Shown here in pieces: positions 4,220 to 50,318 of a DNA stretch of 64,000 bases. The position numbers and the translations under genes were made by a program. This stretch comes from Octopus vulgaris (Eukaryota), in assembly GCA_951406725.2 (NCBI GenBank), contig OX597830.1, forward strand, positions 2,294,001-2,358,000, read 5' to 3'. The notes beneath the pieces were generated by a model, which did not search any database, was not told where the DNA came from, and saw nothing but the letters and a program-made list of their open reading frames with translations. Position 1 is the stretch's first letter. Every line of letters begins with the position of its first letter.

Positions 4220-4297
4220 GCGGCTGAAGAAGGCCACAGACATACATTATGCATTGTTATAAATCTGTCTAATAAAGGCCCGAAACATATGTACCGC
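4220..4297 (+). ncRNA. Minimal type I hammerhead ribozyme with extended stem II
   Basis: gcgg-CTGAAGA-aGGCC..GGCCc-GAAA-C-ATAT-G-TA-ccgc. Stem I gcgg/ccgc, intact core, palindromic stem III (ACATATGT), GUA cleavage triplet. Confidence 0.8.
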
Positions 4298-4336
4298 TGA
4301 ATCCTTCGCATCATGTTTTTATTTTATTTTGATCAA

Positions 4337-4440
4337 TATATATATATATACATATATATATATATATATATATATATATATATATATATATATATATATA
4401 TATATATATAAGAGAGAGAGAGAGAGAGAGAGAGAGAGAG
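4337..4440. repeat. (TA)n-(GA)n microsatellite
   Basis: Read directly from the sequence. Confidence 0.95.
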
Positions 4441-5499
4441 ATGTATACATGCATGCATCTGCATAAATTTTATTTTTATTTTTGTTTTTTGCTAATCTAA
4501 ATTGGTTCAGGATATAAATGCCAATGAGAAACAGAGAAAAACAAAATATCAACCAGTGGTTTTCCAGTGACATCCCTTGAGATATTATTCCTGCAATGAG
4601 TTACACAGACTCCCTTAACATTCTCAGATATATAGTGAACCAGTTACTGATCCACTGGAAACCCATAACAGATGTTTCTATTGTTCACCGATTCCAATAT
4701 AAAATAAATAAATCATAATGAATGTCGTTAGTATCTGTCCATTTTTGCCTGCCATGGATCTGTTGGGTCTGCTTCTCTACAGAGAAGCCATATATTTTTG
4801 AAATATTGATTTCATATTTAGAAGATTTATTTGAACAAAAAGAAAACTTAGCGCGAACAGAAACAAAGAATAATGATTTGTATAAAATCAGGCCTCGATT
4901 GAAAATGACAGACAGACATAGACATAGCTAAATATTGCTGCAAGGAACTTTTATAGAATTTAGAAAAATCCAATACATTCTCGAAATCTAAAAGATTCCT
5001 GACTATAGTTGAATATTTTTGATAAAACAATGAAAAGTCATTAATTTAAAAGTTTTTTTTTTATATTCTTCATGCACTGACATTTGGTATTTTGTATCAT
5101 AATTTATTGCTTTCTGCATATTCCTTTGTCTTTTAGGTTCCATTGCTTTAAGTTAAGCTCACAAACACATTGAGAAATTTAGTTTACATTCTATGTTTGA
5201 CAGATATTTTCAAATAGATTTTTTTCTTTATATATATTTTGTCTATTCTTGGTTCTACTTTGTATTTTTAGAATATTGTACAAATGTTGATTAAATATTT
5301 TCTCGTCGTTACGTCTTATAAGATTTCTTAAAGAAACATGAAAAATCTTTCCTTTCATATTAAATATCAGTTGAAATATTTCAATAAAAAATTTTCTGTA
5401 ACCCTTTTTTACCATATTCATCATACATATACATAAATATTACATTTACACACACTGCATGACTGAGAAGCCAGCTCACAGCACACCATTTCTCTAAAG

Positions 5500-5539
5500 A
5501 TTTCCTGAATAAGGAGTCATAACCCCGAAATATTGAGAT
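5500..5539 (+). ncRNA. Degenerate minimal hammerhead (pLTR relic)
   Basis: atttc-CTGAATA-AGGAG-tcataa-CCCC-GAAA-TA-TT-gagat. Stem I of 5 bp including G.U; G8 mutated; one stem II mismatch. Confidence 0.4.
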
Positions 5540-5799
5540 AGAAAGTTAAAGTGCAAAACACTGACTTGTGTTGTTTCTTGCATGTCTTTGGCTTTCAGAT
5601 ATAATCTGTCTATCACCATTTTCACCATCTTCACCCTCATCATACTTCAACATTCACTTTCCATGCTAGCATGAGTTGAACACGGATGTATATATGATGG
5701 ACTCTCCCGTCGTCAGACCACATATGAGGGTCGGCAATTTCTTACTGAACAATCACACAAATGATTTGTTAACAGTGATCAAATGTTTGTGTAGATTTA

Positions 5800-5998
5800 A
5801 GTGCATTCTCTCCATCAGATGGACATTACCTGTACAGGTGCAATGGGTGCCACATGTTAGATGCCGGAATGATTCCAGAGCCAAGGTGAAAAGAAGTGCT
5901 TTGCTCAAGAACAAAACACAAAACCCTGTCTAGGAATCAAACCCACAATCTTGCAATCGTGAGTGCAACACCTTAACCATTAAGCCATGCACCTTCAC
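5800..5998 (-). mobile_element. tRNA-derived SINE (degenerate)
   Basis: Minus strand reads gtgaaggtgcaTGGCTTAATGGttaagg...GGTTTGATTCC (A/B boxes), then ttcttgagcaaagcac. A related head is at 32606. Confidence 0.65.
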
Positions 5999-6000
5999 GC

Positions 6001-6249
6001 ATATATATATATATATATATATATATATATATATATATATATATATATATATATATATATATATATATATATATATATATATATAATGTATATTATGTAT
6101 ATATATGTATATATATATGTATATATATATATATATATATATATATATATATATATATATATATATATATAATGTATATTATATATATGTATATATTTAT
6201 ATATATATATATATATATATATATATATATATATATATATATATATATA
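6001..6249. repeat. (TA)n microsatellite
   Basis: Read directly from the sequence. Confidence 0.95.
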
Positions 6250-49100: not shown

Positions 49101-49248
49101 ATTACAGGCATCCCCCCACCCCACACACACTAAATAAACATAGATGCACATAGAGATATAAGCATGCGCAAATGAAGACATACAATAGAAATACAAAATG
49201 GCTGACGGTTAGTAAGGAGAGACACAAATACGAAAGAAGAAAACAAAG

Positions 49249-49292
49249 GACCACTGATGCAGTCACAGGAGTGTGACGAAAGAACTCTGGCC
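49249..49292 (+). ncRNA. Hammerhead-like motif in inverted pLTR
   Basis: Same sequence as 21411-21454. Confidence 0.6.
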
Positions 49293-49546
49293 GAAATAAG
49301 ATTAAGATTAATGTAAAAAATAAATAACACTGAAGCAAAGTAACACCAAATATATAGTGCGTGTGCTTTTATTGGCTAAACTGGCAAAATGACCATTCCG
49401 AAATATAACAATATATATATATATATATATATATATATATATATATATATATATATATATATATATATATATATATATATATACACATATATATATATGT
49501 ATATACATATATATATATATGTACATATATATATGTATATATATTT

Positions 49547-49745
49547 CACATGATCATGTGACCGACCAGACCATCAGATGTTGTTACACATTGCTGGTCA
49601 CAATGCATTCTCATTGTTTTAGCCTTCGAATGACGCCACCGCGCTGGCAAAGCGAGCAGGCCAACAGAAGAAAGAGTGGGAGAAAAAGTGGTGAAAGAGT
49701 ACAGCAAGGATCTTCCCCCTGCCGGAGCCTCGTGGAGCTTTTAGC
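49547..49745 (-). mobile_element. Short non-autonomous element with RTE-like 3' end
   Basis: Minus strand ends ctgatggtctggtcggtcacatgatcatgtga, resembling the end of 45708-45875. Flanked by (TA)n. Confidence 0.6.
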
Positions 49746-49916
49746 TGTTTATATATATATATAATTTTATTATATACATATATATGTATACATATATATA
49801 TATGTACATATATATGTACATATATATATACATATATATATATATATATATATATATATATATATATAGATAGATATATAGATAGATAGATACATACATA
49901 CATACATGCATATATC

Positions 49917-50193
49917 GACTGGCTCCTGTGCCAGTGGCACGTAAAAAGCACTATCCAAATGTGAACGATACCAGGCCGATATGACGGCCTCCTGTGCTGG
50001 TGGCGCATGAAAACCACCCACTACTTTCTAGGAGTGGTTGGCGTTAGGAAGGGCATCCAGCTGTAGAAACATTGCCAGATCAAATTAGAGCCTGGTGCAG
50101 CAGTTGGCTCTCGAGACCTCAGTCAAACTGTCCAACACATGCCAGCAGGGAAAACAGACATTAAACGATGATGATGATGATGATGATGATGAT
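49917..50193 (+). mobile_element. RTE 3' end fragment with (GAT)n tail
   Basis: ggttggcgttaggaagggcatccagctgtagaaac..cattaaacgatgatg. Confidence 0.85.
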
Positions 50194-50277
50194 AAATATA
50201 TATAACATAAAGGCTATTTGCCAACATATATATCTGATCTTGAAGGGAGTTCAGCACTCTCAACCACTGCAAAACAT

Positions 50278-50318
50278 CTGTAGAGTAGTTTCTGGGTTAT
50301 TGCTCTTTATCAACACAG
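50278..50318 (-). ncRNA. Degenerate U3-A8 hammerhead relic
   Basis: ctgtg-TTGATAA-agagcaataaccca-GAAA-CTAC-TC-tacag. Confidence 0.35.

Follow-up and report, generated by a model that had tools for sequence, protein, structure and literature searches.

Minimal type I hammerhead ribozymes (HHRs) are known from the pseudo-long terminal repeats (pLTRs) of metazoan Penelope-like elements (PLEs). Many HHR families per genome, palindromic stems III, and solo or opposite-strand copies are already published in the parts used here of Cervera & de la Peña (2014, PMC4209133) and Craig et al. (2021, PMC8557442). We analyzed a 64,000-nt stretch of Octopus vulgaris DNA (GCA_951406725.2, contig OX597830.1, positions 2,294,001 to 2,358,000; hereafter the window), which lies in a 2.8-Gb genome and is rich in microsatellites and retroelements. 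It shares with the former study the type I fold in pLTRs, the many families per genome, the predominance of solo motifs from truncated copies, the opposite-strand pairs, the extra nucleotide after position 9, the palindromic stem III, and the U3-A8 variant. The phenomenon as a whole is mostly known, and its interest lies in natural variants, some of them possibly new.

The motifs listed in the window are hammerhead-shaped and belong to nine genome-wide repeat families (A to I). Six of the nine are PLE pLTRs tied to open reading frames (ORFs): three Hydra-type (A, B, and I), two Neptune-type (C and G), and one Nematis-like (D), where clades were assigned from motifs and by eye against the supplementary alignments of Craig et al. 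(2021), not from a tree. An initial annotation had proposed several co-existing PLE families with minimal type I HHRs and distinct core variants, which these six families bore out, and a position on the sense strand near the 3' end, which held for all six. The HHR was seen in both pLTRs of B, C, D, and G and at the 3' end in A and I; in full-length parents, it lay in both direct pLTRs, about 100-630 nt upstream of the ORF. The core, C3UGANG8A9...GAAA...UH closed by stems I to III, had a canonical consensus in A, B, E, F, and I and a U3-A8 pair in G and H, and departed from the HHR consensus at one position each in C (U6) and D (C9). Stem III was a perfect palindrome in eight of nine family consensuses. 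The four palindromes quoted earlier were real; the exception was D (21411, 46101, and 49249), which has a central A.A mismatch. The G10.1-C11.1 pair was present in B, C, D, and E, was G-U or G-C in I, and gave way to a base mismatch in A, F, G, and H. From sequence comparison, we consider it highly probable that these are type I minimal HHRs of nine families, six of them in PLE pLTRs, and that paired copies would cut RNA to unit-length templates.

Of the 12 sites listed in the initial annotation, eight fitted a relaxed descriptor written once the motifs were known, all on the sense strand: 4224(+), 10713(-), 11624(+), 12270(-), 14945(-), 21416(+), 46139(-), and 49254(+). Three others failed it as decayed copies, at 5500 (G8>U), 13967 (G5>A), and 50278 (broken stem III); consensus sequences from 30 copies each, collected by plain DNA similarity, restored the core and stems in all three, with all 11 core letters kept in 14/30, 14/30, and 19/30 copies, respectively. 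The last, taken for an HHR relic at 15384, was misread: a Neptune copy (15419-14812(-)) breaks off there at its 5' end, next to another element (15421-15837(-)). Because 10609/11622 and 46101/49249 are paired arms of single inverted insertions, the 12 sites do not count as 12 independent events. Absent from the initial list were a second HHR of family C, decayed, at 14620 and a possible further decayed U3-A8 hammerhead at 34590-34632 (-).

The post hoc descriptor and a weak, chance-like match at 26793(-), within the ORF of another retroelement, raise the alternative that repetitive, AT-rich DNA produced the motifs by chance, and a scan with core positions 3, 6, 7, 8, and 9 left free did return 0-6 matches per shuffled 600 kb. 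However, the strict CUGANGA core gave four window matches (three listed sites and 26793(-)) against a mean of 0.02 (maximum 1) in 60 local dinucleotide shuffles, and the relaxed descriptor gave nine against 0.10 (maximum 1). In a genome sample of 600 kb (60 evenly spaced 10-kb stretches), the relaxed descriptor gave 24 matches, seven of them from one array, against 0-1 in five shuffles. In addition, the pLTR position was fixed in parents, and decayed copies were restored by consensus. A chance origin was ruled out by the shuffle controls, the consensus restoration, and the free-core scan, and we give it a negligible probability. The sample points to roughly 10^5 HHR motifs genome-wide, and the window is about two- to three-fold richer than average (six in 64 kb at the genome-sample setting). 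A Rfam scan of the window returned no hammerhead family among 150 listed of 151 matches.

Copy numbers are lower bounds from first-look searches, with 40 matches scored per search and 30 loci kept per family. Family A had at least 1076 candidates (40 of 42 listed matches 100% identical; other matches 99-100% identical in the first-look search), B at least 783 (40/40 scored matches 100% identical), and G at least 933 (other matches 100% identical). Identities of other matches were 98-99% in D (at least 440 candidates), 95-98% over 110 nt in I (at least 1190), and 91-96% in C (at least 2864), and fell to 77-88% in H (at least 444), 76-86% in F (at least 884), and 73-86% in E (at least 143).

The parent of family B (L031) measures 5.6 kb and has direct pLTRs, each carrying an HHR, as well as Hydra motifs and a 2.1-kb 3' untranslated region (UTR). 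RWR and DKT were located in its protein, and a CxCx5C linker and a GIY-YIG domain without CCHH were read by eye. The linker and endonuclease (EN) of the A and I proteins, also read by eye, were homologous to those of B, and the A and I HHRs lay downstream of Hydra-type ORFs. Pfam did not recognize the Hydra-type proteins, and no relatives of the B protein turned up in a metagenome search. The B and I HHRs were about 70% alike, with the core kept and helix II differences that preserve pairing (by eye). The window sequence 10391-12125 is a single foldback, consisting of the last 967 nt of B and an inverted arm without the tail. Copies of B ended at two points after the cut site, about 188-224 nt (19/30) and 372-393 nt (11/30), which matches the PLE 'tail' (PMC8557442, in the part used here; PMC11167929). 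In family I, the GAAA half missing from the window was present in other copies. A mini-exon within the B helix II, prompted by splice-like words, found no support in contigs from four sequencing runs guessed to be RNA; in these contigs, which were not used as evidence, the ORF of the B parent was crossed in two of the runs, with no splice joint at the HHR.

Parents of the Neptune-type families were a 4.5-kb unit for C (L387) and 5.8-kb units with two ORFs for G (L278 and L279), all with an HHR in both pLTRs. Their proteins scored above the cut-off for RVT_1 and had, by eye, a long Cx2-5CxxC linker and a GIY-YIG domain with CCHH; the C protein closely follows Neptune1_Ap (by eye), and the EN remnant of C in the window was 88-95% identical in amino acids to 149 other copies. 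In family G, a 480-aa upstream frame overlaps the reverse transcriptase (RT)-EN frame in the -1 phase (L279:2211-5920), and the overlap contains a U UUU UUA heptamer followed by a weak downstream fold (-6.5 kcal/mol); a frameshifted ORF1 is mentioned for PLEs in a figure legend (PMC8557442, Fig. 1). The G pLTR also carries, immediately upstream of its HHR, a tandem repeat of 44 bp (window 14963-15192), and the 3' UTR (L279:5950-7400) contains about 1.4 kb of TG/TA-rich, microsatellite-like sequence inside the element. The parent of family D (L384) has an HHR in both pLTRs and intact frames of 1310-1312 aa. Its protein has a Nematis-like short linker before GIY-YIG, its RT N-terminal motifs differ from Nematis, and Pfam gave no match. 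The D insertion 45926-49414 has a foldback layout like that of B. Head-to-tail 4.6-kb copies of D, 99.6% identical, were found at L382 (G000:C19:14370500-14380499), a layout that would put several HHRs in one transcript.

In the proposed mechanism, a transcript that is tandem or runs from pLTR to pLTR would hold two HHRs, which likely base-pair via their palindromic stems III and would cut after H17, giving unit-length RNA for the RT-EN of the element. The predicted stem III duplexes were -7.0 (A), -11.1 (B), and -1.7 kcal/mol (C), and no hairpin was predicted for the monomers. PLE HHRs have low published activity in vitro, and cleavage here would be slow, dimer-dependent, and probably protein-assisted. 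According to the literature, PLE RT/EN has two closely spaced start sites for reverse transcription near the 3' end, and PLE copies are often 5'-truncated with an inverted, tailed arm (PMC8557442, Fig. 2 legend); the two start sites and the truncation with an inverted arm would together produce ORF-less HHRs, alone or on the opposite strand. A foldback copy such as 10391-12125, if read through, would trap its HHR in double-stranded RNA, and the decayed copies at 5500, 13967, 14620, and 50278 are likely dead.

Comparison across families indicates that the fold is under constraint. In the free-core scan of the genome sample, a Watson-Crick 3-8 pair with A9 was present in 12/16 matches against 5/36 in 20 shuffles, and C3-G8, U3-A8, and G3-C8 versions each formed families; a stricter version of the scan missed wobble-containing families, and its clustering merged a sister lineage of family C into C. 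Family H differs from related copies in L339 and L311 by swapped pairs in stem I and swapped palindromes in stem III, with the core unchanged. The test of stem covariation suggested in the initial annotation gave a divided answer, with pair-preserving exchange across families and, within family F, nothing above shuffles.

The variants were of several kinds. The helix II region measured 51 nt in A, 54 nt in F, 84-85 nt in B, and 100 nt in intact copies of I, each with an 8-nt palindromic stem III; folding z-scores of the long helices ranged from -2.2 to -6.3 (mononucleotide shuffles), and four further long-helix motifs (59-103 nt) were found at other loci without a linked ORF. In family C, U6 was fixed in 36/36 pattern-matched copies, a set enriched by its own queries, in which the free positions varied (N7 in four states and H17 in three). 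The sister lineage of C has A6 on a common scaffold, so that U6 is a single fixed change in a motif otherwise preserved. In family D, C9 replaced A9 in 45/45 matched copies and was followed by A or G. Outside the window, a family with a G3-C8 core and a 6-bp stem I was observed at five loci (L309, L307, L324, L050, and L390), and a short flank of it matches window 33478-33522.

Several observations weigh against the reading of these motifs as PLE HHRs that cut in pairs. Family D lacks A9, and its stem III duplex is predicted to be unfavorable (+1.4 kcal/mol), with the weakest stems of the set; the D ribozyme may therefore not cleave and may be dead. Stem I of family B has just two uninterrupted pairs. 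Covariation in family F comprised four pairs with two-sided change against 5.5 in shuffled alignments (434/500 shuffles at least as high), and RNAalifold predicted no pairs; this is expected of dead copies, although it gives no support either. The higher identity of the core (0.91-0.96) than of the flanks (0.78-0.88) in the old families is biased by BLAST seeding. For E, F, and H, tblastn of 30 copies per family with 1.5 kb around them revealed no linked sense PLE ORF. Finally, HHR cleavage in an Anolis PLE was protein-assisted and not needed for insertion in vitro, with no RNA ends seen at the site (PMC11167929).

The motif in the young families D (C9), C (U6), and B (2-bp stem I) may instead no longer cleave and persist because the pLTR needs it for structure or protein binding, or be simply carried along. 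We regard this as plausible while leaning against it. A6 and A9 are consensus core positions, and the natural A6C variant cleaves poorly in Mg2+ (PMC3088659 and PMC7151607, in the parts used here); stems I and III of D are weak; Naiad PLEs amplify without canonical HHRs, according to the part used of PMC8557442; and cleavage was dispensable in vitro for the one PLE cited above. Family C, in contrast, keeps its other core letters, stems, and NUH rule across subfamilies about 80% identical, and the A6 sister lineage has the same scaffold. The young families B, G, and D, with many identical copies and intact ORFs, offer matched RNA and protein for testing whether PLEs need hammerhead cleavage, and the U6 family with its A6 sister is a ready-made control.

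Four features are possibly new: the 51-100 nt helix II, the fixed U6, the fixed C9, and, outside the window, G3-C8. U6, C9, and G3-C8 were absent, by eye, from the 56 representatives listed in the supplement of PMC4209133, its file 1 left out. A6U was not found in the parts used of PMC3088659 and PMC7151607 or in literature searches, with Lünse 2017, the source likeliest to list variants, left out. Known natural variants include a U3-A8 pair, a U.U pair at the stem II base, and a change of position 6 (A6C) (Perreault 2011, PMC3088659; PMC7151607; parts of both). Only tentatively, and with some doubt, do we suggest that the PLEs of this genome carry active HHR forms missed by standard descriptors (a Hydra-associated 50-100 nt helix II with an 8-nt palindromic stem III; U6, C9, and G3-C8 fixed across entire retrotransposon families). 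If the U6, C9, and G3-C8 forms cleave, perhaps only as dimers, with an element protein, or with another metal ion, the natural HHR core widens; the long helix II forms suggest that searches with short-spacer descriptors undercount invertebrate HHRs and, if active, may account for PLEs scored as HHR-less.

Some of the window sites had been read as ORF-less and retrozyme-like, and this reading failed wherever it could be tested: 10609/11622, 12239, 14909, and 15482 map at 79-99% onto ORF-bearing PLEs, which indicates that the seemingly ORF-less copies of B, C, G, and I are ends of PLEs, either inverted or truncated on the 5' side. For E, F, and H, the search for a parent ORF found none, so a non-autonomous origin is possible for these three. 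Non-autonomous retrozymes or short interspersed element-like units with a life cycle of their own nevertheless seem improbable as the source of the ORF-less sites. Copies of E, F, and H had ragged 5' extents, and a second copy was present in 2/30, 4/30, and 5/30 loci, all opposite-strand but one (H), as in truncated PLEs. TRF found no window repeat of period 40 or more that contains an HHR. A genuine retrozyme does exist in this genome, and its unit has no match in the window. This non-LTR (long terminal repeat) retrozyme, at L298:2097-4768 (G000:C1:20002097-20004768), consists of tandem units of about 359 bp, each with a canonical type I HHR (6-bp/4-bp helices), in five forward and two inverted copies with a PLE-like inverted layout, and has at least 2502 candidates genome-wide. 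Genome-wide, its copies terminate close to unit position 205 or 252 (both approximate), a pattern that resembles the PLE tail and fits mobilization by a PLE. Metazoan non-LTR retrozymes (PMC7229834; bioRxiv 10.64898/2026.07.22.740005; parts of both) share with the window sites the type I HHR, the ORF-less look, and the co-occurrence with PLEs. The window sites, unlike them, do not form tandem units of 150-450 bp, nor do they have the canonical 6-bp/4-bp helices; the L298 unit fits on both counts.

Table. HHR motifs and their host elements in the window (HHR entries named by family)
Feature	Position	Strand	Identity to longer or parent copy
Family A, 5'-truncated Hydra-type PLE, ORF remnant 925-2499, long 3' UTR	845..4337	+	93-99% to longer copy in L280
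HHR A, canonical core, 51-nt helix II region with A.C at base, 8-nt palindromic stem III, H17 = 4293	4218..4299	+	
HHR E, decayed (G8>U) copy, old family; consensus is a classic minimal HHR	5499..5540	+	
Family B, inverted 5' arm without tail, truncated Hydra-type PLE	10391..11175	-	
HHR B left arm, 84-nt helix II region, 2-bp uninterrupted stem I	10605..10719	-	
Family B, 967-nt tailed 3' end of 5.6-kb Hydra-type PLE	11164..12125	+	97% to L031
HHR B right arm, 85-nt helix II region (-38 kcal/mol, z -6.3), H17 = 11727	11618..11733	+	
Family C, 5'-truncated Neptune-type PLE, GIY-YIG remnant and pLTR	12134..13322	-	79-81% to full-length L387
HHR C, U6 core variant, H17 = 12243	12237..12276	-	
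HHR F, decayed (G5>A) copy, old family, 54-nt helix II region	13964..14048	-	
Second, decayed family C HHR	14614..14653	+	
Family G, solo 3' end (608 nt) of 5.8-kb two-ORF Neptune-type PLE; 5' break is the listed '15384'	14812..15419	-	99.3% to L279
HHR G, U3-A8 core, U.U at helix II base, H17 = U (14913)	14907..14951	-	
Family I, Hydra-type pLTR fragment, HHR 5' half only (position 3 = 15482)	15421..15837	-	
Family D, truncated Nematis-like PLE and short inverted 5' piece	19969..21577	+	
HHR D, C9 core variant, stems I and III imperfect	21410..21455	+	
Family D, broken RT-EN copy	45926..48773	-	87-91% to intact L384
HHR D at 3' end of the 45926..48773 copy	46100..46145	-	
Inverted 5' arm of family D insertion 45926-49414, HHR at 49248-49293	48784..49414	+	
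HHR H, decayed copy, old U3-A8 family	50277..50319	-	

Other non-LTR retroelements with RT or AP-endonuclease domains were observed in the window at 6087-10025, 26133-28488, 40574-43435, and 54800-63871; the third (-) contains an open 953-aa endonuclease-RT frame. At L391:4015-6222 (G000:C20), an intronless 736-aa open frame has helical repeats and a C-terminal TIR-like domain (by eye).

Searches for an octopus or cephalopod HHR survey returned only Craig et al. (2021) as relevant. In the part of that study used here (PMC8557442), Octopus Hydra-1_Obim is already listed with an HHR, whose sequence differs from those of the window families. The window's Hydra-type elements have in common with the Hydra clade RWR for RWK, DKT, the CxCx5C linker, and the lack of CCHH (by eye), as well as the (TA)n insertion, the 3'-end HHR, and the frequent mismatch at the base of helix II. 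Hydra-clade units are 'generally <3 kb', whereas the family B unit reaches 5.6 kb with its 2.1-kb 3' UTR. The 56 representatives in PMC4209133 include no cephalopod and, by eye, no helix II region above about 25 nt, and the only long HHR loops among the File S2 entries used from PMC8557442 are those of two spike-moss PLE-X elements. Hydra HHR loops are 3-10 nt in 26/26 rows of that file, in contrast to the helix II regions of 51-100 nt found in the window families.

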